Source: a virus (lineage: Duplodnaviria; Caudoviricetes). Taken from it: a stretch of DNA of 32,203 nucleotides. The translations under genes were made by a program, and so were the position numbers. Positions 1,647-29,537 of this stretch are shown piece by piece. Under the pieces are notes generated by a model. The model made no database searches. It was not told the origin of the DNA and saw only the letters and a list, made by a program, of their open reading frames with translations. Position 1 is the stretch's first letter; each line of letters opens with the position of its first letter. The stretch covers positions 1 through 32,203 of IMG/VR virus record IMGVR_UViG_3300028557_000125. The stretch is one strand, 5' to 3'.

Positions 1647-4600
1647 TTATATTTTATCTGTTTCCATAAATTTAGCTTCATCATATTCTAAGGCTGAAAT
1701 TTTATATTTACTTTCTTCTGTTTCTTCTATATCTAAAACTCTAAATTTTTGAGTTTGATCAATATGTGGTTCTAATTTTGCTCCTAAATATGTATTTTTA
1801 TTTATTCCTGAAATACTAGGACTTTTCTCATATTTATACGTTTCTGGATCTAACTCAATTGTCCATACTGTATTTTGTAATAATGTATGTTGTACGTTAT
1901 CTAACTTTCCAGGAAAATTAATTTTTGCATATCCACTATAATTAATTCCAGTTTCTTCAACAACAAATGTTTGAAATGATAGTCCACTAACTCCAGCGGT
2001 AGTATTGAAATTAATAGTTTGTACTTGCTTTCTTCTTATTGTCTCGCTAGATGGGCCACCTTTTACATTTATATTTTCATCATTTGCATCTTTCAAGTCT
2101 ATATTAACGCTATCATTTACTAAAGAAGTATTTTCTGAAAGCTTATCCATGAAATTATTTGAATTATCTGTGCCAATTTCTAAATTCCCAGCGGGTGTTA
2201 AAACATTAAATTTGCAATCTCCAATTACTGGTAAGAATTCAGCCATATCATTATATTTTATATCAATAATTGCAAAATCTTTAGCTAATTGATATGTTCT
2301 TCCACCAAGAATTTTATTTTGTCTATTTTGATCTTGTATAAAGACAATGTCTCCAGGTTTTAAATATAATGCTGGAAGACTTGTTTCAAAAGATACAAGT
2401 TCTGCTTCTGAATTTTCTGATAACAAAGTCCACTTTCCGTATCTTTCAGCTTGACCTTCGCTCGTGCATCCAAAAGCGCTCATTTCCATTTCTCTTATTC
2501 CATTTCTTAATATACCTTCTCTGTTCTCTACATATTTAATAGCTGGTTTATAAAAATTATCTTTATCATTATATCTAACTAATGCTACATTCCTTCTTAC
2601 TCTTTTACTTGTATTACTATACGTAAATTCTCCTTCTTTAACGTTTGAATTATTGAATAAATAGATAGGTTCTTTGGGTTTATCCTGAGAAGTAAAAATA
2701 AGTCCAGCTGTATAATATACAATACCTCTAAAAATACTTGCCATATCATTTATTACTTTGTAAGCATCTTCTCTAGTAGAAATAAGAAGATTGCATGTAA
2801 ATCTTGGTTCTACCTCTATGGTTTGAGTATTATCAGTACTATTTTTAGTGTTTGATTTTTTACTCTTAACTAGTTGATCACAATATTTTGATATTTCATA
2901 CAAAGTCCATTTATCAACATATTTTGAATCAAAATATTTACCTAATCCAAATCTATTATTTGTAATAATATCATAAAAACACCATGCTGGATTATCTGTC
3001 CAAGCTAAAACAAATTCTCCATTCCAGGAACTTTGATAAGTTCTGGTATATGGATCATAATTAGAAGGAATTTTTACTTTTAATAACCTTGTATCATACG
3101 CTCTTTGAGGTATGCTAGTGAAAAATCTAGCATCAAAATTAGTTAAAATTGCAGCCGTATTTGGATATATTAATTTATCATTGTATATTTCTGTAACAGA
3201 ATCAACATTTGCCTTATTAGCTATATTTATATCAACGGTTTCATAATGTATTGGAGTAATTTCTATTTCCCATCCTATGGTATTTTGATTTGTTATTTTA
3301 TCTAATCCAAGCCATTCAAAACTTTCTATATACGACCCTTGATTTAATTTTCCAACAATTTTTAAAGCCCATGTATCTGACCCAATATTATAAGAATCTG
3401 CGCCAATACTTGAGGCTGGAACTGTACTTCCGTCCCACTTAACATAAAAAACTTGTTGTCCTATATTTATGCTAGAATCAATTCTTTTAAGTCTTAAATA
3501 ATAAAGTTGAGCATATCTATCTACTCTTCCAGTTTGTGTCTTCTTTGCGGCCTGCGCGCTGCTTTCCCAAATGCTTAAATCAACAATTTGTTTAAATAAT
3601 GCAGAAACTTTAATGTTCAATCTTAAGCCATATAAGTTTTTAGCTAAAATATTTATTGATTTTTTATATCTTTTAACTTCTGTTCCGCTGTTTTGTTCTA
3701 TTTTTCTAGCTCCTAATAATCTCATTCCAGAAGTTTTTGTCGTTGAGATATGTTTAGGAATATTAACTAATAAATTTTGAGACGTACTGTAAGCATCTTT
3801 TATAATTTTAACATTTTTAGCATTATTTTCTTGAGTGGTTTGTTTTATATTAAGTATATCTGTTACGTTTGTTCCTGGTAATAATTTCTTAGTATAAACT
3901 TCTTCTTTCAAATCTATATATTTATGTTGTTGCAGCTTGGAATGTAAAGACGGCTTGCCTCCATTTGTATGGCTTAATTTAATAAAATCAAAATTAAGAG
4001 ATCCATTATCTGGATATGTATCATCTGCTAAAGGTGTTTCATTCCAATATACAGAACGAATTAATGGATATTCTCCATCATATTTTTGTACTATTACTCC
4101 ATTTTCATATCCAATCATACCTTCTGTATTTCCTGGCCTTGGTTTTATTTCATAATCCACAATACCTTCTATTGGTCCTTCGCTTACAATATCTAATATA
4201 GATATATTTGTTAGACTTGTTATACCAATATCTTCAGATTTTTTTTGATCATTAATATATACAGTAGCATAATTAGATAATGTATAGTAGTCTTTAATTA
4301 CTTGACCAGGCAAGCATTTTGTATTTTTTGGTATTATGTTTGTAATAGAATTATTAATTTGAGTTATTTGAGTTGGACCTCCAAGAAAAGCACTTACAGT
4401 TTGTTGTGGTTGAAGTTTGCCATCTTTTTTAGTTTGATAAGTACAAGTGTAAATTTGGTTTTTTGTTGCTATTTGACTTTTTTCATCTTCGGTGTATAAA
4501 TATAATGTAAATGTTGTTTGATTAATATATGCATTTTCTAAAAATGCACAATCTGCAGCTGGCACAATTCTACAAGTATAGACTCCTGCTTTTGTAGGTA

Positions 4601-7016
4601 TACCATTAGGATATTTTAGTCTACTTGGATTTCCTATCAATTTTTTAGCGTTGCTTGCACCAATTCCTGCAATATTTTGTTCTAATATAACTTGTCCAAT
4701 CAACGATGATGGAATAGTTGTACCACCATAAGAACTTGGAGCATCATAATAAGCTTGATATTCAAATTGAGCTTGAGCCGCGTCCAAATCTTCTTGTCTT
4801 GAGAAAGATGCAAAAGTTTTAGGATTTCTTTGTTTTACTTCTAAAGGACTACCTTCACTAAAATAAACATCAGGAATTAAATAGTCATTATTTTTATTTT
4901 CAATTCTTTGATATGTTTCTGTTGGTAAATTAGAATAATATGTTCCTATAGTTCTAGTTTCTCCAGCTTTTTTGTTTGGTATATTATTTATTGTATAAGC
5001 TACGGATTCTGTTATAAATTTTCTATTTGTGTTTCTAATAGTCAAACTCACTAATTGACTTCTAGCAGTAGAAGCTGGACCATCTTTACCCTCATTTTTT
5101 CTTGCCGCAGGTGGTGTATAACAAATTCTTCCATTACTATCTATTCTATATTGTTCTCCAGCATCTATATTCATAGTAACATTAACATTAATCGATGTAG
5201 ATGAATCAATATTCTTACCTTTTTGAGTTGACCCAACAAATTTATATAATGTTAATCCTGTTTGTGGATCTATTTTATTTTTTAATTCCCCAATTCCGTA
5301 CTCTGTTCCTCTTGAGTTTTGAGGTGTTACTGGCTCTTGTTGTACTATCCAATTTCCAGAAATTGAAGTAGGATCATCAATATAAACAAAAAATTTTCTA
5401 TTATCAGCATTTTGAAGAGATGAAAATGTTAGAGTTTTTGATCCATTTTTTGGTATAGGCTGTAAGATTGTATTCGTGGCGCTAGTAAATAATCCACCTA
5501 ATATTCCTAATCCACTCTTATTTAATGTTTTAGCAATTAAATCATAATTTTGACCAAGTGCAGAAACTATATCTGACATTTTTGCAAATCTGACTATTGC
5601 ATCTGAAGTAGGTGATAATGTAACACTTATTGTTCCCTGTTGGATTTCAAATGCTGGATTATGATATATATTTAATTCAGATGGAAAACTAGCAATAGGT
5701 TTTATGTTCTTTGTTTCAGCTGGACTAATATTTAAAGTTATATTAACTGCTCCAGATGCCCCTTTACTATTAGCAATATAACATTTAATTGTTTCATTAA
5801 ATGCATGTTTTGGAGTTCCAGATATAACGCCTGTTGTTCTATTTAATGATAATCCTTCTGGTAAATAATCGACAGCAAAACATAGATTACTTGTGTTGCT
5901 ATGTTTAATTGTTGCTGAAAATTTTTCATTAACAACTAAATTAAAAGTTTGAGCAGAAGCACTTGGAGCTGAAGCTCCAGTGATATCTCCTGTAACAATT
6001 TGTAAATTGAAATTAATAGTTTGACCCGAAGCAAAATCAGCATTTTTTAATGTTATTGGTATCGAGGTTATAGTTATTGAATTTGGAGCTATTATAGTAC
6101 CAGATATTTTTTTTGTTATTTGATCAAAAGTTAATCCTAATATACTTAATCTAGCTAATCCTTCATTATTTATATGAGCTTCCCATTCTCCGTTTGTTAT
6201 ATTTGTTGTTATTGAATAATTTATACTTGCACCATTATTTGCTCTTATAATAGGTGTAGATGTGCTTCTTATAGGATCATTTCCCAAAGAATCTTTACAT
6301 TTAATTGTTAAAGTTTTAAAAGAATCAACTGTTATTGTATTTTTCTTTTTATCTATTGCAGGTGTTAAAATGCTAGCATTTAATTGAACCGTATAATAAC
6401 CAACTTTAGAAACTGGTTTATTTGAAGTCCATAAAATATCTGTATTTATTATTTGTGCTGGATTATCATTTGGAGCTTGAAAAGCTAAAGAAGTTTCAAA
6501 ATCTTGATTTTTTGATACATAATAATATGTTACTGCTTGATCAGAATTTATTGTATATGTAAATGGTTGCCCTTTAGTTGCATCTGCTTTTCCAGAGCTA
6601 GTAATTTTTGCTGGGGTTAACGCTGTTGTTTCTCCAGCTCCTCTCGCTACGAGTCCTTTTGCAAAATCCCATATAAACCAAAATCCTTTATCTCTGTCGA
6701 CTCCTTGTATTGAGCCAAGAAATGTTCCGTCCTGAACTTTATTATTAGTATAAAGCGAATTTAATACTGGATTATAAGCTCTAATTAAATCTAAATTATT
6801 TGCTGTTACTTTTAATCCTCCATTTGGATCTGTAATATTATTTAGTTCATCTTGTGGATCACCAAGATCATTAAAAGTAGGAATTATTTCATTATTAAAG
6901 TAGCTCTGCGTATCTTGATCGAAGTTGTATCCATTTGCTCCTCTATACGCAGCACCTTCAATGTATTTGTTTGGATCACAATTTGCGCACCTTTTAACTT
7001 TTGGATCGGTAGCCAT
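1647..7016 (-). CDS. J: Tail tip / central tail fibre protein gpJ-like, with ~925-aa N-terminal extension containing putative Ig (He_PIG-like) domains
   Basis: Lambda-J motifs LDIVSEGPIEG, SVYWNETPL, YPNTA...FDARFFTSIPQRAY...KVKIPSNYDPYTRTY...WNGEF..AWTDNPAWCFYD, EPRFTCN, MASIFRG, FGCTSEGQAERYGKW. Upstream Ig-like repeats LPEGLSLNRTTGVISGTP and GLTFDQITKKISGT. Position after K and I. Confidence 0.92.
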   Translation of the reverse strand: MATDPKVKRCANCDPNKYIEGAAYRGANGYNFDQDTQSYFNNEIIPTFNDLGDPQDELNNITDPNGGLKVTANNLDLIRAYNPVLNSLYTNNKVQDGTFLGSIQGVDRDKGFWFIWDFAKGLVARGAGETTALTPAKITSSGKADATKGQPFTYTINSDQAVTYYYVSKNQDFETSLAFQAPNDNPAQIINTDILWTSNKPVSKVGYYTVQLNASILTPAIDKKKNTITVDSFKTLTIKCKDSLGNDPIRSTSTPIIRANNGASINYSITTNITNGEWEAHINNEGLARLSILGLTFDQITKKISGTIIAPNSITITSIPITLKNADFASGQTINFNLQIVTGDITGASAPSASAQTFNLVVNEKFSATIKHSNTSNLCFAVDYLPEGLSLNRTTGVISGTPKHAFNETIKCYIANSKGASGAVNITLNISPAETKNIKPIASFPSELNIYHNPAFEIQQGTISVTLSPTSDAIVRFAKMSDIVSALGQNYDLIAKTLNKSGLGILGGLFTSATNTILQPIPKNGSKTLTFSSLQNADNRKFFVYIDDPTSISGNWIVQQEPVTPQNSRGTEYGIGELKNKIDPQTGLTLYKFVGSTQKGKNIDSSTSINVNVTMNIDAGEQYRIDSNGRICYTPPAARKNEGKDGPASTARSQLVSLTIRNTNRKFITESVAYTINNIPNKKAGETRTIGTYYSNLPTETYQRIENKNNDYLIPDVYFSEGSPLEVKQRNPKTFASFSRQEDLDAAQAQFEYQAYYDAPSSYGGTTIPSSLIGQVILEQNIAGIGASNAKKLIGNPSRLKYPNGIPTKAGVYTCRIVPAADCAFLENAYINQTTFTLYLYTEDEKSQIATKNQIYTCTYQTKKDGKLQPQQTVSAFLGGPTQITQINNSITNIIPKNTKCLPGQVIKDYYTLSNYATVYINDQKKSEDIGITSLTNISILDIVSEGPIEGIVDYEIKPRPGNTEGMIGYENGVIVQKYDGEYPLIRSVYWNETPLADDTYPDNGSLNFDFIKLSHTNGGKPSLHSKLQQHKYIDLKEEVYTKKLLPGTNVTDILNIKQTTQENNAKNVKIIKDAYSTSQNLLVNIPKHISTTKTSGMRLLGARKIEQNSGTEVKRYKKSINILAKNLYGLRLNIKVSALFKQIVDLSIWESSAQAAKKTQTGRVDRYAQLYYLRLKRIDSSINIGQQVFYVKWDGSTVPASSIGADSYNIGSDTWALKIVGKLNQGSYIESFEWLGLDKITNQNTIGWEIEITPIHYETVDINIANKANVDSVTEIYNDKLIYPNTAAILTNFDARFFTSIPQRAYDTRLLKVKIPSNYDPYTRTYQSSWNGEFVLAWTDNPAWCFYDIITNNRFGLGKYFDSKYVDKWTLYEISKYCDQLVKSKKSNTKNSTDNTQTIEVEPRFTCNLLISTREDAYKVINDMASIFRGIVYYTAGLIFTSQDKPKEPIYLFNNSNVKEGEFTYSNTSKRVRRNVALVRYNDKDNFYKPAIKYVENREGILRNGIREMEMSAFGCTSEGQAERYGKWTLLSENSEAELVSFETSLPALYLKPGDIVFIQDQNRQNKILGGRTYQLAKDFAIIDIKYNDMAEFLPVIGDCKFNVLTPAGNLEIGTDNSNNFMDKLSENTSLVNDSVNIDLKDANDENINVKGGPSSETIRRKQVQTINFNTTAGVSGLSFQTFVVEETGINYSGYAKINFPGKLDNVQHTLLQNTVWTIELDPETYKYEKSPSISGINKNTYLGAKLEPHIDQTQKFRVLDIEETEESKYKISALEYDEAKFMETDKI

Positions 7017-7017
7017 A

Positions 7018-8334
7018 TTAAGATGTTAATGAAGTTGTTGACATGTCTTCATTATTTATATTTGTTATCTTTACAGGATATCCTTTTGTGTTAAAATAGT
7101 AACTTCTTGATGGATAGCTTTCTTCTCCTGCATTTACTTTTGGTTTTCCAGCATTTGGCCCTGATTCTTCAAGATGAGATTTCCTTGATTGAATTCTATA
7201 GTATTGATCATAAGATGCAAAAACTTGATGACTTCCTACAATAAGTCTTCCATATCCTACTGGAACAGGTCCACCTTCTCCTATTGTATTAACTGGTCCA
7301 TTAAATAAATAAGAAGGCTCTCCTCCTCCACCATTTGGAGAACCACTAAAATCTGCAGAAGGATTAGCGATAGCTGCTGGACTTACCATTGGGGGTGGTT
7401 TAGATAACATTAAACTAACGCCTACAGCTACTAATCCTAAAATTGCTGGCATCATCATACTAAGTGTTAATCCAGCGAAAATTTGAGTTCCTGGAAGAAT
7501 AGCTAATACAACAGCTAAAAATATTGCTATAATACCTTTAAACATTCCTCCTCCACCTTTGCCACCACCCTTACCGCCTCCTCCATTATGAACTAAAATT
7601 TCTTCAGCAATATACGTATGATTATCTTTTACATGCATGTTGTAAACATCTTCGCAACCATCTTCTTCTATTTTTTCTATTGGTAAAACATCTCCACTTT
7701 GATGCGTTAATACATCTCCTATTTTAAAATCTGATAATGGGGCAAATCTATTATATTCATTTAAAAACCAGTGATTCTCTGTAGCACGTATAGTTTTGCC
7801 TCCCCATAATGTAATTTTTAATATCTTATTGTCTTTATGGAAAAAAGTTTCCTCAACTATGGATGTTTTAATATTTTTATCTTGATCAAAGCAGAAAATT
7901 TCATCTCCTACTTTAAAATCTTCTATATTTTTATCCCCATTTGGGGTGGATATTTTAACTCCAGCTGGAAAACATCCTCCACCTCCTCCTCCTCCTCCAC
8001 CTGCGCCTTCGATAACTGGAATTATATCGATTGAAGAAAGCTTATCACTTGAGAGTGGAATATTTAATTCTGAATTTTTTAATAAATCAATATGTTTTTT
8101 TGTTAAATCTTTATTTTTTTGAGGTAAATTTTCTGCATTTGGTACCCATACAGATCTATTATTAATAAATATTTCATATTTTGCTTCATTTTCTGCTTGT
8201 TGAATAAGATATTTCATTAATTTTCCAGTATTAGCTTCTATAGCTCTTATGGCCTCTGAAACGCTATTTACTTTTAAATTCCATTCGGAACCAATTTGAT
8301 CGCCCAAATCACCATGTAATGTTACCTTTACCAT
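7018..8334 (-). CDS. I: Tail assembly protein gpI-like (ubiquitin-like N-domain) carrying an inserted Hint/intein-like domain
   Basis: N-terminus V.LHGDLG..IG....L.V.S..EAIRAI...IDIIPVIEGAG; hydrophobic segment; C-terminal SYLFNGPVNTIGEGGPVPVGYGRLIVGS, typical of lambda gpI. Lies between K and J. Confidence 0.9.
   Translation of the reverse strand: MVKVTLHGDLGDQIGSEWNLKVNSVSEAIRAIEANTGKLMKYLIQQAENEAKYEIFINNRSVWVPNAENLPQKNKDLTKKHIDLLKNSELNIPLSSDKLSSIDIIPVIEGAGGGGGGGGGCFPAGVKISTPNGDKNIEDFKVGDEIFCFDQDKNIKTSIVEETFFHKDNKILKITLWGGKTIRATENHWFLNEYNRFAPLSDFKIGDVLTHQSGDVLPIEKIEEDGCEDVYNMHVKDNHTYIAEEILVHNGGGGKGGGKGGGGMFKGIIAIFLAVVLAILPGTQIFAGLTLSMMMPAILGLVAVGVSLMLSKPPPMVSPAAIANPSADFSGSPNGGGGEPSYLFNGPVNTIGEGGPVPVGYGRLIVGSHQVFASYDQYYRIQSRKSHLEESGPNAGKPKVNAGEESYPSRSYYFNTKGYPVKITNINNEDMSTTSLTS
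7585..7974 (-). other. Hint domain (mini-intein / bacterial intein-like, aa 121-250 of gpI); no endonuclease; +1 residue is Gly
   Basis: Block A CFPAGVKISTPNGDKNIEDFKVGD; block B IRATENHWF (TxxH); block F/G VYNMHVKDNHTYIAEEILVHN followed by G. Confidence 0.9.
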
Positions 8335-8335
8335 G

Positions 8336-9085
8336 TTAAATCATACTCCTATGCCTGACGATATATTTCGTATGTTTTCGATAAAAATCGTCATATGTAT
8401 TTACACAAGAAAAAGAATTATATGGGTGGTGTAAAATTGTATTATTCCCTATATGCATAGCGCAATGAGTAGCGTATACTTCAGAAACATTAGGAAATAA
8501 CATAAAAAATGCATCATGCTTTTTTAAAGGAGTATTTTTATCTAATTTAATAAAATTTTGCTTTTCAAAAAAATCTTCATATATAGAATTTATGTCTTTT
8601 AAATTTTTTGGATATGCTATTTCTTTTGGACAATATATCGAAATATTTAATTCTTTTTTATAATAATCTATAGCTAAAGAAAAACAGTCTGAAACTTCAG
8701 TAATATATGGTCTACCAATATATTTATTTTTATAAGTATTTGGATAATATATATTAAATATGTCATTTTTTATATTATAGAGTATATATGTTATATTATG
8801 TTTATTACTATTAAGCTTATCTATTTCACTAAATTCATTATTATCATTATTATGAGAATGAAAACAGGCAACAATCTTGCCTAATTGACTACATTTTAAA
8901 TACTCCAAAGAAGATATTGAGAAAAAATTTTTTTTATCAAATGCTATATTTTTACAAGAATATATGTTAAATTTTAATGTTTTTTCATTAAAGTATATTA
9001 AACCACAAGATTCTATATCTTTTCTATTATTAGATATATTTTTAATTTCATTTTTTAATGAGTCATTAAAATCTATTTTTATCAT
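8336..9085 (-). CDS. K: Tail assembly protein gpK-like (JAB/MPN metalloprotease + NlpC/P60 domain)
   Basis: JAB motif ESCG...FHSH......FSEID; NlpC/P60 motif GRPY....DCFSL..DYY and HCAMHIG...ILHH; ATGA overlap with L. Confidence 0.92.
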   Translation of the reverse strand: MIKIDFNDSLKNEIKNISNNRKDIESCGLIYFNEKTLKFNIYSCKNIAFDKKNFFSISSLEYLKCSQLGKIVACFHSHNNDNNEFSEIDKLNSNKHNITYILYNIKNDIFNIYYPNTYKNKYIGRPYITEVSDCFSLAIDYYKKELNISIYCPKEIAYPKNLKDINSIYEDFFEKQNFIKLDKNTPLKKHDAFFMLFPNVSEVYATHCAMHIGNNTILHHPYNSFSCVNTYDDFYRKHTKYIVRHRSMI

Positions 9086-11484
9086 TTTCCACCTTGAGAT
9101 TGTTGAGTCCTATATTTTCCTTCTGCTGAAGGGAATCCGCCAAATGGAAGGATGCCTAGTAATCTTTCATTATTTTGATCAATTGGGGGACGAATAGTTT
9201 CTGCAGAAATATCTTCTTGTACTTTTTCATATTGACTAGTACTGGTAACAAAATCTGACATTTCAACAAAATATGAAATTTTTACTTCTTCAAAATTAAA
9301 ATTATTTTTCCATCTTTTTTTGCACCCATTTAAAGTTTTAGAACATGTGTCATGAAACCAATATCCCGTATTTGGTGGAGCATTTACAGAATTTGATTGG
9401 TGAGTTTTATTGCATACAAAATAATAATTTAATTGATTTTTTTGTACATGTATGAAATTTCCAGATTGATAATTAAAGTTTTTTTTCCAATGGCCCAGAT
9501 CTGTCCATGCTGATCCTGCTGTACTTCTTGTCGTAGAGAATTCGTTGTCGTTTTGATCTGCTACAGGCGGAGCAGATAACAATCCAAATGTTAAATTATT
9601 TTCATTTAATTGATTGATTTGACATAAAGATTCACTATCTCCACCAAGTTTAGTTTGTGTTGTACCCGTAGCAAATTGTATATTTTTCATTCCAACTACA
9701 TTCGCATATACTCCAGAATGTTTTTCTGAAAGTCTATCGTATCTTTCATAAACGCAACCTTCTCCGCGATAATGAAATGGACAATTTTGAGATAATAAAA
9801 CTCGACCTGGAAGTTTTACTCCTTCTATATCTAAAAGAGATGCAAGTTCATATACAGCATTTGTAGAATCTTCTTGAATTTTTCTATCTATATAAAAAAT
9901 ATCTGGAGTTAATTCTACTTCTGTATTAGAAACATTTTTATATTTAAGCAATTCAGTATCATCTATAGAACCAAAATTATAAAAATTAGAAAATGTCTGT
10001 GTTATTCCAGTTGGAGTACTTAAAATAGGTTGATAATCCGTTGCAATAAAATTAAATGTATGAGTATTTAAATTTGTAGTTCCAGATGCGTAAAATTTAA
10101 AACCTGAAGTAGTAATATTTCTTAATTCTGTAATGAAGTCTAATTTATTAGAATTTGAATTAGAATTAAATAATATTTTTGGTTGATAATTTGTAAAAGA
10201 AGTTGGATAAGATACTGAAACTTCTCCAGTATTATTTGCTCCAAAATTCACAGATTCTTTTAAAGCTACTAATTTTACATCTTCATTTGTGTCTGGATTT
10301 CTTCCTGTATAAAATCCAGTTTCTAAAGCTAAATGATTTACATAGTAATTACCACTTAAATTACTAGAAAATTTAATATCAAAACTATCTGTTTGTTGAT
10401 TTGATATATTATATTTTACTAAAGGGGCAGGATCTAATTGATTAAAATTAAATTCTTTTTCTGTTAGCTCTCTAGTCTGAGTATAAAGTTGCCCACTAGA
10501 TCCTATAGAAATAAAATTTACTAAATTGCCAGTGCTTGGAAAAGCTGTTGGATAATTTATAGTTATTCCACTCTCATTGATGAATTTTTTCGTTTTAAAA
10601 TTAGCGACTAATTTAAGCAAATTTGAAGTATTATTCAATTTAAATTCATTTTCATTTTTATAAATTAAATTAGAAAAACCATTTTGGTTGCCAGAAAATA
10701 TAAAAGTATCTTGATAAAAAATTGGATTATCCGTATTTGTTTCCAAAATATCAGAATTTACATAAATGTTAAAAAAATTTTTAATTTCTTTCGGAGCAAA
10801 AAAACTACAATCTTGAGATTGTCTTAATAACTTATCGTTATAAATTGATTTTATATTAAAAAATATTATATTTTTTTCTCTATCAGTAACAGGTTTATAA
10901 TAATAATTTATCCATTTACAAGCGTTTTCAGGAACAAAATCATTTATTCTTACTGTTAATGTGTCACCATCTCTAGAAGCCCAAGGAGCATCATCATACT
11001 CATTAAATGGATTAATTCCTCCTACAAAATTACTTCCAGCAAGATATCTTAAAAATGTTTTTCTTCTAGTCACTTTAGCGCCAACAATATCTTTTAATTC
11101 ATTCATCTGCATTCTGATGTATTTATAAAAAGAATTATATTGATCTTCTAAAAATTGACTTGAAAATTTAATTTTTGGAGTAGGTAATGAGCCGTTAGAA
11201 GTTATATCAAATCCTTCTCCAAATATCGGAAAAGGATAGTAAAATTTATCTTTCCAAATAATTACTCCACGATTGACATTGAATAAATTATAATCGTTAT
11301 GAATTCGAATAACTCCATCTGAGAAGACGCTATTTTCACCAAAATTTATTGTTACAGGTTGAATATCATTCAAGTCAATTTCATATAAATAAATTGGACT
11401 ACTTGGCTCTAACTCATGTATATGAGTGTTTATATCTCTTTGAGATTCTAATATTTCTGTAAAAATTGTATTTATATCTGCCAT
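9082..11484 (-). CDS. L: Minor tail protein gpL-like (four-Cys Fe-S type) with large inserted lectin/CBM-like domains
   Basis: IYLYEIDL, IIWK..YYPFPI..EGFD....GSLPTP, DIVGAKVTRRKTFLRYL, FYIDRK...YELAS..DIEG.KLP.R, CPFHYRGEGC, DTCSKTLNGCKKR, LPFGGFP. Confidence 0.9.
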   Translation of the reverse strand: MADINTIFTEILESQRDINTHIHELEPSSPIYLYEIDLNDIQPVTINFGENSVFSDGVIRIHNDYNLFNVNRGVIIWKDKFYYPFPIFGEGFDITSNGSLPTPKIKFSSQFLEDQYNSFYKYIRMQMNELKDIVGAKVTRRKTFLRYLAGSNFVGGINPFNEYDDAPWASRDGDTLTVRINDFVPENACKWINYYYKPVTDREKNIIFFNIKSIYNDKLLRQSQDCSFFAPKEIKNFFNIYVNSDILETNTDNPIFYQDTFIFSGNQNGFSNLIYKNENEFKLNNTSNLLKLVANFKTKKFINESGITINYPTAFPSTGNLVNFISIGSSGQLYTQTRELTEKEFNFNQLDPAPLVKYNISNQQTDSFDIKFSSNLSGNYYVNHLALETGFYTGRNPDTNEDVKLVALKESVNFGANNTGEVSVSYPTSFTNYQPKILFNSNSNSNKLDFITELRNITTSGFKFYASGTTNLNTHTFNFIATDYQPILSTPTGITQTFSNFYNFGSIDDTELLKYKNVSNTEVELTPDIFYIDRKIQEDSTNAVYELASLLDIEGVKLPGRVLLSQNCPFHYRGEGCVYERYDRLSEKHSGVYANVVGMKNIQFATGTTQTKLGGDSESLCQINQLNENNLTFGLLSAPPVADQNDNEFSTTRSTAGSAWTDLGHWKKNFNYQSGNFIHVQKNQLNYYFVCNKTHQSNSVNAPPNTGYWFHDTCSKTLNGCKKRWKNNFNFEEVKISYFVEMSDFVTSTSQYEKVQEDISAETIRPPIDQNNERLLGILPFGGFPSAEGKYRTQQSQGGK

Positions 11485-11489
11485 AATTC

Positions 11490-12065
11490 TTATCCAGATA
11501 TTTCATCAAATTTTGCGTTTATTGTATAATTTTCCTTAAAATTAAAATTTGTCTCCCATTCTCTACATACGTATCTTGTTCTATAAGTTTTTTCTGAGTA
11601 TATTGTTGGTGGATCATATGCAAAAGCTTTTGCTGCAGCTTTATCTTGCAAGAAATGAACAATAGCATGTGCTTCTTTTTCTGTTTTTAATTCGAATTTT
11701 AATTGAAAAGTTTTTAAATCTGGATTAATATTTTTATTTATTCTTTGTTCGTATCCATTACCAAATCTTATTACAGTAATTAATGGTTTATGACTAGTTG
11801 TTGATGTATAAGAAGCCATCCAAAAGAATTTAGGTATTCTTGAGTTATCTTGAAGAATTGTGACTCCATCCCAATATTCAAGGTTTAATTTGAAATTATT
11901 ATTACCATTATCAATAATTGGTGCAGTTGAGCTGTCTCCACCTTTTTCATGATCTTTAACAGCGTAATAAAAATTGTTTAAATGTTTGACAATATCATTT
12001 TTTGTAAATTGATAAGATGAACCAAAATTCACCCAATTCCTTATAGGATCGTTAATAGACGGCAT
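11490..12065 (-). CDS. M: Minor tail (distal tail) protein gpM-like with N-terminal CBM5/12-like module
   Basis: FFW...P....IRFGNGYEQR....IN, FL......KAF.Y.PP, YVCREW...INAKFDE. N-terminal W....Y...DIVKH...FYYAVKDH..G...P...YW. Confidence 0.85.
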   Translation of the reverse strand: MPSINDPIRNWVNFGSSYQFTKNDIVKHLNNFYYAVKDHEKGGDSSTAPIIDNGNNNFKLNLEYWDGVTILQDNSRIPKFFWMASYTSTTSHKPLITVIRFGNGYEQRINKNINPDLKTFQLKFELKTEKEAHAIVHFLQDKAAAKAFAYDPPTIYSEKTYRTRYVCREWETNFNFKENYTINAKFDEISG

Positions 12066-12139: not shown

Positions 12140-12949
12140 ATGTTTAGCTTTACAAGAGAATCTAATAAATTATTTATAGATAATTCACCTGTAACTGGTC
12201 TTCAAACCATACAGGCAACTTATAATAATCCATATGAAAATATAAAATATTTAGGATTAAATAATAACTCTGTAAATACTGTGCCTATTGGTGCATTTAT
12301 AGGAGCATTGAACTTAACCAATATCATGATCAATGAAGATCAATTCATTAAATATACTGGTAGTAATGGAGCTAATTTGCTATTAAGCTACAATAATGAT
12401 AATAATAAATTCATAATGACTAGCGGTTATTTGGCTAATTATGAGATAGAGTGTAGTGTTGGTGCTATTCCTATTATAACAAGTCAATGGAATATTTATA
12501 ACAACTTTGGTAGTGGTTCAGCATCTGTTCCTAATTTTCAAATAGATGAAACAAAATTGAATATCGTTAGTCCTGGAGACATTTCTATCAATTTTAACGA
12601 TATAGCTGAAGAAAAAATCAATAGATTCAATATTAATATAAAATCCACAAGACTGCCCATCTATGAACTTGGTAAAGTCACTCCATCAGATGTTACTTTG
12701 CAATATCCTATAGAAATTATTTCATCTTTTAGCATATCTTTAAATAATTATAAAATTAAAAATCTTTTTGATTATCCGCAAAAAAATCAATTAAAATCAT
12801 TTTCTATAGATTTAAAGAAAAACAATACAAATACCATTATTAACACTTTTAATATTAATAACGCTTTACTTGTAAGTGAGGACTATAATTTAGATGTGGA
12901 TGGTACAGTATTAGCACAATTAACATTTTCGAGTACTATACATAGATAG
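12140..12949 (+). CDS. Putative tail tube-like protein, paralog 1 (internally duplicated)
   Basis: Beta-rich. The pattern Q.IQATY..P..NIKYLG recurs as INIKSTRLPIYELG; ends YNLDVDGTVLAQLTF, resembling tail-tube folds. Structural-gene context. Confidence 0.55.
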   Translation: MFSFTRESNKLFIDNSPVTGLQTIQATYNNPYENIKYLGLNNNSVNTVPIGAFIGALNLTNIMINEDQFIKYTGSNGANLLLSYNNDNNKFIMTSGYLANYEIECSVGAIPIITSQWNIYNNFGSGSASVPNFQIDETKLNIVSPGDISINFNDIAEEKINRFNINIKSTRLPIYELGKVTPSDVTLQYPIEIISSFSISLNNYKIKNLFDYPQKNQLKSFSIDLKKNNTNTIINTFNINNALLVSEDYNLDVDGTVLAQLTFSSTIHR

Positions 12950-12973
12950 TGTAATATTATGAAAGGAAAAAGG
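12949..12973 (+). promoter_or_regulatory. Third copy of GTGTAA-N10-GGAAAAAGG motif
   Basis: GTGTAA 12949-12954 and GGAAAAAGG 12965-12973, with ATG at 12982. Confidence 0.55.
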
Positions 12974-12981
12974 ATAAATTT

Positions 12982-13770
12982 ATGCCAAGGATATATTATG
13001 ATCAATGTGAATTAAGTATTAATAGAACAGGAGTTATTGCCACATCTGCTAATTTAAACTCTGATATTGCTTTGGGGCCTGTTTATACTTTGGGTAAAAG
13101 AAAGCCTTTTAAAAGATTGGTAACAACTGGACCTGCATCTAGTACATTTCAAATTCAATATATTATTAATCCAACTGGAGATCCCGCTTTTAATACTATA
13201 TCAGATATTAAAAATTTTATTTCTGCTCCAACTAATTACGATGGAGTTACTATAGCTTTAGCAGGTGTTACTGGATATAGTTGTTATTTAAATAATTATT
13301 CTATTAAAATTGAGCCAAACAATGTTGTTACAGCTCAAGCTAGTTATACATCTTATGTTCCAATTTCTGGTGACATCTCTTTAAAATCTAATCCAAATAG
13401 CGCAGTATCTGATAGTATTGCTCATAGTTCAAAAATTAATATAGTTTCTGGAAAAAGTTTAAATGGTGATTCTTACAGTTTTAATTATACATTTGATTGT
13501 AATCTAAATCCTATATATGTTTTAGGTCAAAGAGAACCAGTAGAAGTCAAGCCAATTAGAGCTCAAGAAACAGTTAATATGACAGAAAATGTTTTTAATA
13601 AACTTGTATATACAGGTGAAAATATTCCTTTACGGATTTCCATATCAGGACTGCTTGATAATAATAACTTTACAATTCAAATGCCTGATGCACATATTAA
13701 TAATTCTACAATTGAAACAAATCTTGATGATATTATTAGAACGACTAAGACATTAACCCAATATTATTAA
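12982..13770 (+). CDS. Putative tail tube-like protein, paralog 2 (internally duplicated)
   Basis: Repeated motif LGPVYTLG / LNPIYVLG; TGYSCYLNNYSIKIEPNNVVTAQASY matches the equivalent segment in both neighbours. Confidence 0.55.
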   Translation: MPRIYYDQCELSINRTGVIATSANLNSDIALGPVYTLGKRKPFKRLVTTGPASSTFQIQYIINPTGDPAFNTISDIKNFISAPTNYDGVTIALAGVTGYSCYLNNYSIKIEPNNVVTAQASYTSYVPISGDISLKSNPNSAVSDSIAHSSKINIVSGKSLNGDSYSFNYTFDCNLNPIYVLGQREPVEVKPIRAQETVNMTENVFNKLVYTGENIPLRISISGLLDNNNFTIQMPDAHINNSTIETNLDDIIRTTKTLTQYY

Positions 13771-13771
13771 T

Positions 13772-14737
13772 ATGTTTTATAATGGAAAAAATTTATTAAT
13801 TAAAATTGATGGCAATGAGATTATTGCTACAGATGCCAATTTATCATATGATGCTCAAATCGCTCCGTATTTTGAAATTGGTGATAGATACACAAAAAGA
13901 GTAACTCCAACAGATGTCATTCAAGGAACATTAAGTTTAAATTACTTATTTACTGGTTCAGATTACATAAAGTCATTAAGAAATAATGATTCATCTTTGA
14001 CATTTGATTTTGGTGGAATATCACAAACAGGATATCTTCAATCTCACTCAGTTAAAATTAGCCCAAATAATCCTATATCTTGTTCTGCGGATATAATATT
14101 TTTTCAAACTCCTACTGGAAATTTTACTCCTGTATATTCTAATATTGATCTAACTTCTAGCGTTGTTCATGCAGATAATTTAGTTATTTATGATTTTGAT
14201 AATAAATATTTAACTGGAAATTATATCAATGCATCTTTTAATTATCGAGTTGACATAAGACCAGAGATCGTCATAAATGAAACTCAGGAAAGAAGAGGAG
14301 TTTTTGGAATTAAAGAAAGTACTTTTAATGGTTCTTTTGATAATTTAAATCCAGAATTAAGTATATCTGGAAATAAAGCTGGATTGTCAATTGCAGTTAA
14401 AAATTTTGCTGGAGCTATATTCAAAGAAGCTTTTGGAATAACTGGATTTATAACATCAAAAAAATTTAGAGGAAACACTGATGAAACTATCGTAAGTGAA
14501 ATTAGTATAAAACAATATGAAATATTAGCAGAAGCAGAAGTCTCTGGATTTAGTCCTGCTCTAGTAAATATTGGTGATACATTAAATATATCAGGATCAA
14601 ATTTTGTAAATGTTTTTGCTGTTGTTTTAGATAATTTACCATGTGATTTTAAACTTAAAGGACCAGGAGCGTTAGAGGTTATTGTGCCTAGATTAAAAAC
14701 TAGAGAACCAATTATAACCTTGATTACTCCTGCTTAA
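13772..14737 (+). CDS. Putative tail tube-like protein, paralog 3, with C-terminal IPT/TIG domain
   Basis: IATDANLSYDAQIAPYFEIG and TGYLQSHSVKISPNNPISCSADI parallel paralog 2. C-terminal VSGFSPALVNIGDTLNISGSNF...LEVIVP is an IPT/TIG signature. Confidence 0.6.
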   Translation: MFYNGKNLLIKIDGNEIIATDANLSYDAQIAPYFEIGDRYTKRVTPTDVIQGTLSLNYLFTGSDYIKSLRNNDSSLTFDFGGISQTGYLQSHSVKISPNNPISCSADIIFFQTPTGNFTPVYSNIDLTSSVVHADNLVIYDFDNKYLTGNYINASFNYRVDIRPEIVINETQERRGVFGIKESTFNGSFDNLNPELSISGNKAGLSIAVKNFAGAIFKEAFGITGFITSKKFRGNTDETIVSEISIKQYEILAEAEVSGFSPALVNIGDTLNISGSNFVNVFAVVLDNLPCDFKLKGPGALEVIVPRLKTREPIITLITPA

Positions 14738-14740
14738 TTT

Positions 14741-16759
14741 ATGGGCGTTGTAAATACAACAGGATTAAAGTTTCAGCCGCCAAACATAGAAATTTTATCT
14801 ATGTCTAATGATACTGGATTAGTTAATGATGTAATTCAAATTGAAGGAATAAATTTTGATTATGCAGATTCAATTAAATTTAATAATACAATTAATTGCG
14901 TATCATCATTTAATAGCTTAATTGATGGAAATTTTAGAGTTCCATTTGATGGAAATACTGGATATGTGAATGTTCATGGAGATTTTATTGGTTTAACTGG
15001 GATAAATCCAAAATCTTTTTGGACAATGTTTGAAATAACAAATTTTTCTCCTAATCAAAGCCCATCTGGAGAACAAATTAATTTTGAAGGGATTCACTTT
15101 AATACATTAACTGGAATAAATTTCCAAGCAGAAGTCATAAAAGATGATTGTGATTTTTTATTGAGCGGGTCAAATGCAAGCTTCTTTAATATACAAGGTG
15201 GGACTTTAAGTGGAAATGGAGAAGCCGTTTTTATACAAAATATAAATACAGTTCCAGAACAAATCAATACTTACATTTCTAACATACAAAATTTTGATTT
15301 AATCTCTGGATATAGATTTAATGCCAAATTTAACACTACTCCACAAAATAATATATATGAAAATCATATTTTAAGTTTCAAAACTGGAATATATTCTGGA
15401 TTTTGTATTTTTAATACAATGATTAATTCTGGTATTGCCAATCAATTCCAAACAGAAAGAATAAATTTACCTATAAGTTTTAATACCCTAAATTATCAAA
15501 CCTATGTATCTTTTATTTCATCTGGTGCAATAAGTGATTATTTTATAAGTGGAAAAGATTTTAATGGTTTTTATATAAATTTTCAATCAGGATTATCAAA
15601 TAGTACATTATTTAATTTTTTAACTATAAGTGGAGATAGCGAACATAAACAAGAGTCTACAAATTTTAAATCTTCATCTGTTTCTACTATAAATGGAATT
15701 TTTTCTTATAATAAAAATATAAGTACTCAATACGATAAATTACATGCTCCATTTTTATTGACAAGTATTGAAATTGATGATTCTGATTTAAATCAAAATA
15801 TTTTTAGAAATTTTAATTTTCCAAGTGGTTTAAATATAAATCTTATTTACGAGAAATATAATTCTGGTATTTATTCTGATTTATATTCTATATCCGATGT
15901 TGATATATTATCTAATGGGAGTGGATATACAACTGGAACTCTACTTACTCTTTCTGGAAGCGGATTATCCAGCCTAACTTATGGAATATTAGAAATTATC
16001 GGAGTATCTAGTGGATCGGGTACAATACCAACAGGGGCCGTAAATAGCATAGAAATTTTAAATTCTGGAATATTTACTGGTAATTTCGATTCAAATATAT
16101 TAACTATAAGTGCTGGTTATAAATATAATATCTCTAATTTGACAAATAAATCTTTTAATTTTGATTTAAATCCAGGCACTGGTAATGAACCACCATATAT
16201 TTTAAATTATTTATTAATTAATGATCCAAATGTTGATTTTAATAGATTTATTTATGACTATAGTGGCGGATTTTATCAAAAAATTTATTTTATCGCTGGT
16301 CAGGAAGCTAATTTATTGACTCCAGTTTCTTGCAGCAATTTAAATATAAGCGGAACTACAAATGGAAGCGGTACATGTATTATACCAAAATCAGATTATT
16401 ATATGAATGGACCAGTAGTATTCCTTGGATTATTTGGATATGAAAGAGAAGATTTTGGAAATTTCAAAGAAATTCCTGATCCAATTTCTGTTACGCCATC
16501 TGGGATAAATACTAAAGGCAGTGTAATTATTTCTGGTAGAAGTTTTAAAAAGGCTAATTTAATAGATGGAACAGGAGAATACAATTCAATACTTGTGAAA
16601 TTTAGAAATATTACTAATCCAAAACAAAAAAATGATTTTTCTAATACTTTTTATATTATAGATGATCAAACCTTAAGTGGAAATATTGAATTAGGTTCAT
16701 ATTTAACTGGTTCATATGTAATTCAAGCGTTAACTGAAGACGGAGGGATTTACGAATGA
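14741..16759 (+). CDS. Virion structural/fibre protein with IPT/TIG and H-lectin-like repeats, Ser/Thr-Gly rich
   Basis: IPT motifs ITNFSPNQSPSGEQINFEGIHF and PISVTPSG....GSVIISGRSF; lectin-like YFISGKDFNGFYINF and YNISNLTNKSFNF. Confidence 0.65.
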   Translation: MGVVNTTGLKFQPPNIEILSMSNDTGLVNDVIQIEGINFDYADSIKFNNTINCVSSFNSLIDGNFRVPFDGNTGYVNVHGDFIGLTGINPKSFWTMFEITNFSPNQSPSGEQINFEGIHFNTLTGINFQAEVIKDDCDFLLSGSNASFFNIQGGTLSGNGEAVFIQNINTVPEQINTYISNIQNFDLISGYRFNAKFNTTPQNNIYENHILSFKTGIYSGFCIFNTMINSGIANQFQTERINLPISFNTLNYQTYVSFISSGAISDYFISGKDFNGFYINFQSGLSNSTLFNFLTISGDSEHKQESTNFKSSSVSTINGIFSYNKNISTQYDKLHAPFLLTSIEIDDSDLNQNIFRNFNFPSGLNINLIYEKYNSGIYSDLYSISDVDILSNGSGYTTGTLLTLSGSGLSSLTYGILEIIGVSSGSGTIPTGAVNSIEILNSGIFTGNFDSNILTISAGYKYNISNLTNKSFNFDLNPGTGNEPPYILNYLLINDPNVDFNRFIYDYSGGFYQKIYFIAGQEANLLTPVSCSNLNISGTTNGSGTCIIPKSDYYMNGPVVFLGLFGYEREDFGNFKEIPDPISVTPSGINTKGSVIISGRSFKKANLIDGTGEYNSILVKFRNITNPKQKNDFSNTFYIIDDQTLSGNIELGSYLTGSYVIQALTEDGGIYE

Positions 16760-19700
16760 GTATTGCAATTCTACAATTAACGCAAAGTAGACCAATTATC
16801 AGCACTACAGCTTTAACTGGTATAACTGGTGACTCATTGTTAATGGTAGGAGATAATTTTAAATTTGGAATAACACAACTTTCTGGTCAAAACATAAGCG
16901 ATAATGGTAGTTATTTTAATTTATATGGCCAATATAAACAAAATATTTCTGGATTAAATAATACTATTGATGAAAATAGTATACTTTTCACTATTCCGTC
17001 AGGAATTCCAGAAGGAGCAAATTATCAATTAACTGTTTTTAATCAAGCTGGATCATCAGTAAATAATGCAAATTTAAATATAATTGGTAAACCTAGTATT
17101 AGTGGAATTGATCTTCTTTCTGGTTTACCAGATGATTACATCAGAATATCTGGTAAAAACTTTAATCCTGCTCCAGATTTTACTTTAATTGATACATTAG
17201 GAAATAGAACTAAACCAGATTTTATTTCTAATCTATATTCCATTTCTAGCGTAGATATTACATCATACGGAACGGGATATCAAAGTGGTGATTTTATTAT
17301 AATTTCTGGTCAAAAACCTTTATCTAGTGAAACATATGGATTATTACAAATCGCTCAAACTGGAATAAGTGGTTCTGCAGGTGCAATTGAAATTATAAAT
17401 TCTGGAATTTTTACTGTACCATTTGATACAAATCTTAATTTAACCACATCAGGGCAAATTGGAGATGGATTAAATTTTAATCTAATTTATAATAATTATT
17501 CTTCTGGTAATTTTGATTATCTAGAGTTTCAAGTTCCATATAATGTTAAAAAATTACAAAGTGGTTTAGTAGAAAATTTAAGATATAAAGAAAGCTTAGG
17601 AAGTGTTATCACAGGATTTAATGTTCTTGGTATACCAGAAATTTATACATTATCTTCTTTGACTGGCACAGTAGATACGGATAAAATTACAATCAGTGGA
17701 GAGAATTTAAATTTTGTAAGCGATGTTTTTATTGGAGATTTTGGAGTAGAATTTTCTGGAATAGACTCAAATTCTTTAAATTTTAATGTAGATAATTTTG
17801 CAGAAACTAATTTCATAACAGTGTCTGGAAAATATGGATCAAGCACAAATTCAAGTTTATTTAACGTTTCCTATCCTCCTATTATAGCTAGCGGATTTAA
17901 CCCTCAAGACGTTTTAATAGGAACAGGAGCTGTAATTAATATATCTGGAAAATATTTACAAAGATTAAATTATTTAAATCTTGGCCAACCAAATATATTA
18001 AAAAAATATATTACAATAACAAATTCTGGAAAAGCCGCATCTTTTAACTTACCAAACGAATTAAAAACTACAGAAGTTTTTGCATATTCTGTTGATTTTC
18101 CTAGTTCTGGAACTACAGTTTTATCTCCAAGTACAAGTAATAAATTAGTTATTTCTCAAAGATTAAATACTGCTTTATTAAATTTTAATTATCTTTCTGG
18201 AATAAATGCTGCAAGATATTTAGATGAGATAGAGTTTTTTACTCCAGACCAATATACAGGTGATGGAGATTTTGGAAACATAAATAATTCTGATATTTTC
18301 TTTTTATCTCCTACTGGTTATACATTTATAACAGGTTCATTTAATCGAAGCGGTATAAAAGTAAGTAATACTCCTGGAAGCTTACGTATACAAGTTCCAA
18401 GAGAAGTAGATAATCCTATATGCCCAATTAAAATAATTAGAAATAAATTTAAAGATCAATATATTCTTCCTAGTAATAAATTTGTTAATATTTTACCAAC
18501 TATATTTGCTATTTCATCACTTAATACATTAAGTGGCACTGGATATAGCACTATTCTTCCAGGTAGTATAAATGAAGGCGGAGAATCTCAAGGCTCTGTT
18601 AATGTTGTTACAGATGGATTTATAAAAATTAGTGGTATTAATGCATCCAATGCAACAAAATTAGTATTTAGTGGTTATAGTGGAAATTTAAATCTTTTTG
18701 GATATAAGCAGGCTCCAGAGTTTTTAGTACTTGAAACTGCGTCTAAAGATACTTCTCAAATAGAAGGTATTAGCGGAGATCATACAGGATATACAATTTT
18801 TACATCTCAACTTGGTGGAGATTATACTGGATCAGGTCAAGCATTTTTAACTCATCCACTTTATGGAACTGGATATGGTTATGAAAATTATAATATAACA
18901 AATGATATAATTAAAATCTATCCTGTTTCTGGTTATCGACCAACTGATTCATTTATATTCACAAGTCCAAAAACATTTGCAACACCTTTGGATGAACCAT
19001 TTGAATATACAATACAAACAAACTCTTTTGCTACAAAATTTGAAATTTCACCAACTACTGCGTATGGTTGGGGTCCAGCAGATTGGCCAAGTGGTTATGC
19101 TGGATATGTATACACAGGAGTGCAAGGTGGAAATAAAATTGCTGGAATTCCTTGGTGGGGTAGAAAATATTGGGTTAAAATAAGAGCTCTTGATGGAGAT
19201 CAACCAAATGAGGCTATGTCATTAGAATTAGCCTTTGGTGTTTCTGGAAGAAGTTTAGCTGGACCAGGAGTTGTTTATAGAGGAGATTGGGAAACTGGTG
19301 TTGTATATGTAGGAAATCAATTAAGAAGAGATTTAGTAAAGTACGCTAATGATGGAAGCAATTATTGGTATGCAACACAAACTAATTCTGGCACAAACGA
19401 TTTAGATGCTCCAAGTGCGCTTAGCATCAATTGGTTACGTTTTGATACAGAATTTAGCGCAGTTGCTACAAAGATTTTATTAGCAGAACAATCTAATATT
19501 ACAACTAGTTTAAATATTGGAGTATATAATGCTAAAACAGGAGTTATCAAGAGCGTTAATGATGTTAATTTTGATTTTGGTAGCGGATTTTTCCTTGGTT
19601 ATGATACCTCATTAGGAGCAATTAATCCACAATTACCAAAAATGAGAGTTGGTAACACAGATGAAGGATATATTAAATGGGATGGACAAAGATTATCAAT

Positions 19701-22369: not shown

Positions 22370-22398
22370 ATATTACTATACTTTTAATATTATGTCAA
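22370..22398 (-). promoter_or_regulatory. Sigma70-like promoter TTGACA-17-TAATAT, 6 nt before ATG (leaderless)
   Basis: -35 at 22393-22398, -10 at 22370-22375, ATG at 22363. Confidence 0.65.
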
Positions 22399-23553
22399 CT
22401 CAAATAAATAAAAATACTTTGCTTCTTCCCAAAATTCTGGAATATCAATAACTTTTATTGGTTTACTCTCAAATGGAATATTTTTTAAATAAGCCGCTTT
22501 TGAATTGTAAATTTGCCCATTACTTATGGTAATTTTATTAGAATTATAATATAAATTATTAATATCTTTTAAATTCTTAATATCTTCTTTTTTACTTTTT
22601 ACAACCTTAATGATTTGTTGATAATCCATATAATCTAATTTAATTGATTTTACAAACTCTTCTGATAGATCAGTGGATAAAACATATGGTATGCCTAAGC
22701 TTTTTAAAACTTTAACAAAACTTAAATCATGATTTTGATCCAAATTATAAATAATTTGAGCTATATTAGATTTATAAGTTTTTAGTATTTCTGAACTAAT
22801 TGGTTTTGATGTTACAATCGAACAGTTGTTTCTTTTTAATTGTTCTCTTAGGGCTTCTTCATTGAATTCATAATCCATACGCATTATTAAAGAATTTACT
22901 CCTAATTTAGATATATCAGCTATGATAGAATTTGGTACAGATTCTATTAGTTTCCTGCTATACTCTTCACCAATACGGAATGTTTTAATATTTATTTTTT
23001 GTAAATCTAAAAACTCTAATATCGAGTTAGCAATACTGATTGGATCAATTTCATTTATAGTTTTTGGAGATTCTTCTGCAGAGTAGCTTGGTTTTCTATC
23101 TTGTTTATTAATTTCTAAAATTTTAATATTATTCTTAGAGTTAAAATATGGACCTGCATTCTCTGGTCTACTATTAGAATATAATGCTACAATAGGCTTA
23201 TCATAGCTACTAGCAACATGTACTCCAAAACTGTCTGCTCCAAAATGCAGTAACCCTCTTTTAATAATATACGCAGCTTGATTTATAGTTGTTTTTCCCT
23301 GCATATGATAGCAATTCTCTATCGGTTTTTCATCTTTTCCGCCAATTTGAATAATATGAATATTTTTTTGACTTAATATTGGAACAAGTTGATTAACGAC
23401 TTCTTGCCAGAAATCATAGCTTTTAGAAGTATATTTACTGCATGGCTGAAAAGATATATATTCATCAAATGGAATTGGACAATATTTTTCATAAACATAT
23501 GGTTTATCTATTTTTAAACCACAATTCAAAGCGTATGTTTCAATTAGATGCAT
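22390..23553 (-). CDS. Glycosyltransferase family 9 (heptosyltransferase-like) C-terminal half plus unknown C-terminal domain
   Basis: HLIETY, KSYDFWQEVV, IIQIGG, GKTTINQAAYIIK...HFGADSFGVHVASSYDKPIVALYS. Confidence 0.8.
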   Translation of the reverse strand: MHLIETYALNCGLKIDKPYVYEKYCPIPFDEYISFQPCSKYTSKSYDFWQEVVNQLVPILSQKNIHIIQIGGKDEKPIENCYHMQGKTTINQAAYIIKRGLLHFGADSFGVHVASSYDKPIVALYSNSRPENAGPYFNSKNNIKILEINKQDRKPSYSAEESPKTINEIDPISIANSILEFLDLQKINIKTFRIGEEYSRKLIESVPNSIIADISKLGVNSLIMRMDYEFNEEALREQLKRNNCSIVTSKPISSEILKTYKSNIAQIIYNLDQNHDLSFVKVLKSLGIPYVLSTDLSEEFVKSIKLDYMDYQQIIKVVKSKKEDIKNLKDINNLYYNSNKITISNGQIYNSKAAYLKNIPFESKPIKVIDIPEFWEEAKYFYLFELT

Positions 23554-28859: not shown

Positions 28860-28865
28860 ATGAGT

Positions 28866-29536: not shown

Positions 29537-29537
29537 A

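Follow-up and report, generated by a model that had tools for sequence, protein, structure and literature searches.

Type-A bacterial intein-like (BIL) domains (PF07591; C. thermocellum 2LWY) are the described relatives of the insert that we analyze here, sharing with it the Hint fold, a length of ~130 aa, Cys1, a TxxH motif, a terminal His-Asn, the lack of a nucleophile at +1 and of an endonuclease, and a position in a variable linker. They are reported to form a thioester at Cys1 and to cleave at the Asn, with the freed amine able to attack the thioester (PMC4031507; PMC5874633, PMC7765530), and they are able to splice, yet cleavage products dominate (PMC4031507). BIL hosts are variable bacterial proteins, whereas the present Hint lies in the linker, processed by a protease, of gpI, a phage virion-assembly protein. 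Class 1 mini-inteins such as gp41-1 and DnaB also have the Hint fold, Cys1 and His-Asn, but the gpI Hint has no Cys, Ser or Thr at +1 and lies outside any conserved enzyme motif.

Two described systems resemble the surroundings of the insert. As in gpI, a ubiquitin-like (Ubl) domain precedes a BIL in Tetrahymena thermophila BUBL1 (ubl4-BIL2-ubl5; PDB 6Y75, 6TMM), where, within a polyubiquitin locus, a Ubl lies on either side of BIL2, which forms isopeptides and reportedly conjugates ubl4 to ubl5 and to a Ras GTPase without ATP (PMC8616854). In contrast, the C-terminal flank in gpI is a plug half with no second Ubl, the gpI Ubl ends in Gly-Ala nine residues ahead of Cys1, and the Hint is optional. 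The L-K-I-J module of lambda, as described for the TAPI Ubl and the TAPK JAB-NlpC/P60 protein (PMC1779556), shares with our locus the M-L-K-I-J order, a Ubl with a conserved terminal Gly, a Gly-rich linker, and JAB plus NlpC/P60 domains; it differs in that our gpI has the Hint and a longer Gly/Lys linker and our gpJ has a 930-residue extension. A full-text literature search, with most subscription journals and supplements outside its coverage, returned no paper that places BIL domains in the tail-tip proteins of phages. The Hint family and the K-I pairing are known; the setting of a self-processing domain in gpI is new.

The gpI Hint and its tail-tip locus

The window, by which we mean the whole stretch of DNA analyzed (32,203 nt), comprises positions 1 to 32,203 of the Caudoviricetes record IMGVR_UViG_3300028557_000125. 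Family matches reveal a lambda-type tail-tip block on its minus strand, in the order gpM-gpL-gpK-gpI-gpJ; the gene names were assigned from these matches and the lambda convention. The features are as follows.

1647..7016, minus strand: gpJ (1789 aa), the central tail fibre, Hint-less and with a long extension at its N-terminus (family matches)
4420..4460, minus strand: approximate position of an empty site, close to gpJ residue 860, at which relatives have a second Hint or a two-gene split (alignment to relatives)
7018..8334, minus strand: gpI-like tail-tip assembly protein with an inserted Hint, 438 aa (family, profile and PDB matches)
7021..7545, minus strand: structural (plug) half of gpI, hydrophobic helices followed by the conserved TAPI-C region (matches and model)
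7546..7584, minus strand: Gly/Lys linker of gpI, residues 251-263, with Gly at +1 (sequence; found also in Hint-less alleles)
7585..7974, minus strand: Hint of gpI, assigned to type-A BIL, C121-N250, 130 aa, with Cys1, block B T185-x-x-H188, VYN and a terminal His-Asn, endonuclease absent (PT-HINT, fold)
7975..8001, minus strand: Gly9 spacer of gpI, residues 112-120, in mixed GGN codons (sequence)
8002..8334, minus strand: MoaD/ThiS-like Ubl of gpI, residues 1-111, ending VIEG-A, with the predicted gpK cut directly after it (model and fold alignment)
8336..9085, minus strand: gpK, with JAB (E25, H76, H78, S86, D89) and NlpC/P60 (C134, H207) domains (family matches, motifs)
9082..12065, minus strand: gpL (11484-9082) and gpM (12065-11490), giving the complete lambda-type M-L-K-I-J order

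The gpI sequence reads ...IIPVIEG-A-G9-CFPAG...TENH...VYN...VHN-GGGGKGGGKGGGG-MFKG..., and the layout claimed for it in a first-pass annotation (Ubl, Gly9, a 130-aa Hint, a Gly/Lys linker and a C-terminal half) was borne out down to the individual residues (C121, T185, H188, H249, N250, G251, K255 and K259). The parts flanking the Hint match the phrog_32 tail assembly protein and, weakly, lambda gpI (8IYK_I, E 0.004); the plug role of the C-terminal half is taken from lambda structures as reported (PMC10721106, PMC12617516). Two contigs of X7, a run that is not marked as a possible source, are identical to window DNA and span both Hint junctions, so the insertion is not an assembly artefact. 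The runs that contain window DNA are lake or freshwater metagenomes, with no RNA run listed among them.

Residues 121-250 match PT-HINT (PF07591) at E 1.9e-10, better than the curated cut-off, and barely reach the cut-offs of the intein families TIGR01445 and TIGR01443. The domain was modelled with a pLDDT of about 90 over this range, and its best PDB match is 2LWY, the C. thermocellum BIL attributed to Aranko 2013, both by sequence (E 5e-20) and by fold (Foldseek 1.3e-11, rmsd 1.7). Second in the fold ranking comes BUBL1 BIL2, at 22-23% identity. Its 130 aa without an endonuclease lie inside the ~130-155 aa range of type-A BILs, and the variable and patchy site characteristic of that type is seen here in the position in a linker, the empty alleles and the two Hint lineages. 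The +1 residue is Gly251 instead of the Cys, Ser or Thr of a class 1 intein, and the earlier description of a BIL-type Hint without a +1 nucleophile extends to the relatives, with Gly-Gly at +1/+2 in 46/46 gpI-Hint proteins tabulated (the search pattern demanded Gly at +1, and a separate check for exceptions returned none). The same annotation had noted the absence of a homing endonuclease, and a scan of the 21 ORFs of the window found neither homing endonuclease families nor E1/E2-like genes. We assign the gpI insert, from its sequence, to the type-A BIL Hints without a +1 nucleophile, with motifs that appear catalytically intact.

Cys1 and block B are kept in all 21 gpI Hints tabulated. C121, T185, H188, H249 and N250 are invariant in 28/28 aligned proteins, which speaks against a Hint that processes nothing and stays on gpI as a folded spacer or binding domain. 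One BIL is reported to have spliced only after a Cys had been introduced at +1 (PMC4031507), as such an inert domain might; but the mature plug of lambda is described as filling the tail lumen (PMC10721106), where there would be no obvious room for 130 extra residues, and we consider an inert Hint highly improbable.

Filled and empty sites in gpI and gpJ

A region search with gpI returned 27 gpI-Hint clusters among 52 matches. With a Hint-less allele as the query, 27 of the 32 full-length clusters of the clade carried the Hint and 5 did not (best 120 of 219 matches). The 122 sequences tabulated divide into 29 with a Hint and 93 without, 88 of the latter being more distant gpI proteins or a fragment. 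The other five, same-clade clusters (P0053-55, 57, 58), have a run of 5-8 Gly followed by Lys-Gly repeats, and the only one with a locus available (L026) has an intact gpK. Since these five empty alleles keep the Gly/Lys linker, the linker and its lysines belong to the host site, and neither the lysines nor the Gly linkers, on which the first-pass annotation had relied, show domestication. Nearly all distant gpI clusters are without the linker. After the Hint, the linker resembles the GGKGG starts of gpJ proteins; joint entry of linker and Hint into gpI from a gpJ start was considered in view of this distribution and of the grouping of the 130-aa Hints with Hints from gpJ N-termini (see below), but gpJ proteins of the sister clade start without a leader of this kind. 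Two gpI relatives (P0108, P0113) have long Pro-rich or Gly-rich inserts at the linker used by the Hint, so this site tolerates other insertions. Simple-repeat slippage as the source of the Gly runs was ruled out by their mixed codons.

All relatives are uncultured. No Hint was found in the sister clade (0/35 loci) and no relative in GTDB genomes (138 pattern matches, 0 confirmed). Among 50,697 GenBank phage records, none matched 80% of either gpI or a gpJ-Hint query at a single location; matches to the Hint only had at most 34% identity, with no tail-protein annotation among the 40 matches listed. In the contigs of four runs no joint leading past the Hint was seen; coverage of the stretch was poor in three of these runs, which makes this result uninformative on Hint-less variants in the population.

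Median dN/dS values of 0.094 (Hint), 0.18 (Ubl) and 0.14 (C-terminal half) were calculated from the 53 of 136 pairs (17 alleles) with usable dS in all three regions, the pairs being non-independent. These values indicate that the Hint is under purifying selection and is maintained, not decaying. Two Hint types, of 130 aa and 144 aa, occupy the same gpI site. On a host tree built with the Hint and linker removed (22 of 47 rows used), single clades were rejected for Hint carriers (p-AU 1e-4), empty alleles (6e-4) and carriers of the 144-aa type (3e-4), and empty alleles arose on at least two occasions within the clade. In the tree of the Hints themselves, the 144-aa type forms a tight clade separate from the 130-aa type, a single clade of all gpI Hints is weakly rejected (p-AU 0.031, from only 131 columns), and the 130-aa gpI Hints group with Hints from gpJ N-termini (92/99). 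The groups were defined after viewing the first tree, so that the p-values are generous. These trees point to a Hint module that has been gained, lost or swapped inside the clade, out of step with the host. A sporadic, decaying insertion, which the first-pass annotation had named as an outcome that would count against it, is not what the homologues show: the Hint is conserved under purifying selection (dN/dS ~0.09) and present in 27/32 clusters. The five empty alleles and the two swapping lineages, on the other hand, show a module that comes and goes, which does not favour the first-pass interpretation.

The same Hint family occurs at two further places in the tail tip, at gpJ N-termini and in the gpJ interior. 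Of 38 distinct N-terminal copies, 34 are preceded by a short leader resembling the end of the Ubl (hydrophobic-x-Gly-Ala/Ser), and 34 repeat the leader motif after the Hint. From its sequence, this leader may be a second substrate of the gpK JAB. In the loci L027-L082 the gpJ leader ends in hydrophobic-x-Gly-Ala/Ser-Gly-Gly, the ending of the gpI Ubl in the same loci. Separately, we observed two tandem gpI paralogues upstream of a Hint-bearing gpJ in L027-L031, L049, L050 and L073-L079.

The internal gpJ site was scored in 19 distinct loci of the clade, including the window. It is fused without a Hint in seven (the window, L004, L009, L013, L018, L019 and L024), bears a Hint with Gly, Met or Arg at +1 in ten (L005, L008, L011, L012, L014, L020, L022, L026, L032 and L095), and forms the stop-start boundary of two genes in two (L010, 8322-13294; L023, 5679-10874). 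In L008 and L026 the gpJ Hint is followed directly by Met-Gly, resembling the start of the separate downstream gene. The fused, Hint-bearing and split states mean that spliced and cleaved outcomes both exist as natural alleles. For a domain type whose natural roles are poorly defined, these fused, split and Hint-joined gpJ alleles, together with the filled, empty and swapped gpI alleles, provide built-in controls.

Predicted processing of the Ubl and of the Hint

Residues 1-111 of gpI, modelled at pLDDT 86.9, align with MoaD, CysO and SAMP1 at middling Z scores (6.8-7.7; rmsd 2.6-3.3, 75-83 aligned), and all of the top ten fold rows are MoaD/SAMP/Urm1-type beta-grasp proteins. G110-A111 overlies the terminal di-glycine of MoaD, CysO and SAMP1, A111 falling on the last sulfur-carrier residue. 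This alignment places the Ubl terminus at G110-A111, nine residues ahead of the scissile bond, and not in a Gly-Gly at Cys121 as first read. The spacer after Gly-Ala/Ser is 9-11 residues long in 45/46 gpI-Hint proteins and 18 in one; the -1 residue is Gly in 44/46, and the -2/-1 pair is GG in 27, QG in 16 and something else in 3. A thioester at Cys1 would form 9-11 residues (18 in one protein) past the end of the Ubl, which does not support a Ubl-Gly-Gly thioester as once proposed.

The claim of an intact JAB-like and NlpC/P60 protein in gpK was confirmed, with matches to Prok-JAB and NlpC/P60 and every motif residue in place. Modelled as a complex, the JAB domain and the gpI Ubl scored 0.82, against 0.00 for the best of 3 controls; the mark used for this score is reached by 116/157 solved complexes and by 2/215 mismatched pairs. 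The model runs agreed in at least 85% of contacts, with a partner pLDDT of at least 72, and residues 105-114 of gpI contact JAB residues 25, 76, 78, 86 and 89. The model supports binding of the gpI Ubl by the gpK JAB, with the Ubl end in the active site, and predicts a cut directly after G110-A111, as reported for lambda. In two alignments the JAB His, Ser and Asp and P106 and G110 of gpI are invariant, which is partly circular because the rows were chosen by those motifs. JAB release of the Ubl at its last glycine was predicted by Iyer et al. 2006 (PMC1779556), and lambda gpK is reported, in a conference summary, to cleave the Ubl off gpI only after gpI has entered the tip complex (PMC12908700). 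The virion structures of lambda, as described, resolve gpI only from residue 134-135 and are missing gpK (PMC10721106, PMC12617516).

The first-pass annotation cast gpK as the de-conjugase of a Hint-driven system. The JAB motif is, however, intact in loci both with and without a gpI Hint (on an unselected list, in every match but one truncated ORF), so gpK shows no sign of being a special de-conjugase, and the reported removal of the Ubl by lambda gpK as a maturation step (PMC12908700) implies that the JAB needs no Hint.

The fuller form of that proposal is a self-charging Ubl ligase, in which the Hint would make a thioester (on our boundaries, of Ubl-Gly-Ala-Gly9) without E1, E2 or ATP, and a lysine or amine of gpI, of gpJ or of a host protein would receive the Ubl. 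Transfer to a lysine or N-terminal glycine of tail-tip proteins could mark or cross-link intermediates or shield gpJ from host Ubl conjugation, until the gpK JAB removes the Ubl; a preprint on Bil defence speculates that phage tail DUB domains counter such conjugation (10.1101/2023.09.04.556158), but none of the present results ties the Hint to host Ubl defences, as the first-pass annotation had suggested. The precedent of BUBL1 BIL2, for which ATP-free formation of Ubl isopeptides is reported (PMC8616854), stands behind this idea, as do the Ubl-linker-BIL layout, the fold match to BIL2 itself, the retained Cys1 and block B, and the 2-3 Lys within 16 residues after the Hint in 46/46 gpI-Hint proteins. 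But alleles with a Hint are not alone in having the features named in its favour, since the lysines and Gly linkers occur in Hint-less alleles and the JAB is intact in either case; the thioester site lies at least 9 residues past the Ubl end, with a variable -2/-1 pair; the closest Hints stand at gpJ starts with no Ubl upstream; and if gpK cuts after A111 as modelled, no more than a stub of Gly would stay on any target. We judge such a ligase improbable; if real, it would be a new kind of viral protein modification and the first Ubl conjugation cycle of a virus to run without E1 and E2.

We think it likely that the gpI Hint only removes itself as the tail matures, leaving the plug with a Gly-rich, Lys-containing start like that of its Hint-less relatives. 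The predicted gpK cut after A111 would on its own leave Gly9 and the Hint on the plug, and cyclisation of Asn250 would be needed to free Gly251, which would explain why the active site is retained. Cys121 would form a thioester at G120, to be resolved either by hydrolysis or by attack of the freed Gly251 amine. The latter route would yield Ubl-Gly13-Lys-plug, nearly an empty allele, which gpK would then trim. The plug would thus start with Gly4-Lys after cleavage and with Gly13-Lys after splicing and gpK processing, compared with Gly5-8-Lys in the empty alleles. Since a usable plug would result from either route, no +1 nucleophile would be required, and the similarity of the plug starts by all routes would account for selection on the active site without a new function. 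Gly-Gly at +1/+2 and Gly at -1 suit aminolysis, and a poly-Gly site would give the same residues. We favour a reading of the Hint as a mobile module that removes itself and occupies sites where splicing and cleavage are both tolerated.

Against self-removal as the only function we count that the Hint is the majority state (27/32) and has a lower dN/dS than its flanks. Without an endonuclease, and between GGN runs that could permit precise loss, its long persistence suggests some benefit. Immediate cleavage by the Hint would also free the Ubl before assembly and so bypass the checkpoint reported for lambda, yet the Ubl and the JAB are conserved. With these conserved and the Hint in the majority, either splicing would be efficient, or processing would be slow or triggered. 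The second option amounts to a co-opted timing device, whose slow or assembly-triggered cleavage or aminolysis splicing would supplement or back up the gpK checkpoint with no foreign substrate involved. Predominance in the clade without an endonuclease, strong purifying selection, conservation of Ubl and JAB beside the Hint, and the recurrence of Hints at three processing points of tail-tip proteins would all fit a timing role. We nevertheless hold it to be unlikely, as empty alleles arose at least twice in the clade, no Hint occurs at any of the 35 sister-clade loci, and purifying selection is expected of any self-excising element.

Under self-removal, the preferred reading, we suggest as a rule that nucleophile-less Hints survive where spliced and cleaved products both work. 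With the gpI Hint alleles one can ask directly if a phage may bypass the gpK-gpI checkpoint described for lambda or has to restore it through splicing, and a 130-aa Hint with an evolutionary history between Gly flanks is a candidate for ligation tools that need no cysteine.

Other genes of the window

Several further genes of the window stand out. A long insert separates the conserved parts, two in number, of the 800-aa gpL (9082-11484, minus strand), which also matches H-type lectins weakly. The extension of gpJ (7016-4200, minus strand) places ~930 residues ahead of the conserved core; it opens with a CxxC motif, which reads CANC here and CKDC in relatives, and includes a putative Ig domain. 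On the strand opposite to M-L-K-I-J, positions 12140-21582 (plus strand) contain five tail-like genes with one weak tail-tube match, the last being a 1608-aa ORF without a clear family. Two glycosyltransferase genes (one GT9-like, the other GT1-like with a weak DUF4214 match) adjoin the tail genes at 22390-25456 (minus strand). DNA polymerase III alpha is encoded in two genes at 26084-30769 (minus strand), the PHP domain at 30769-30008 and the catalytic part at 28678-26084, and the two are separated by an exonuclease and two small ORFs.
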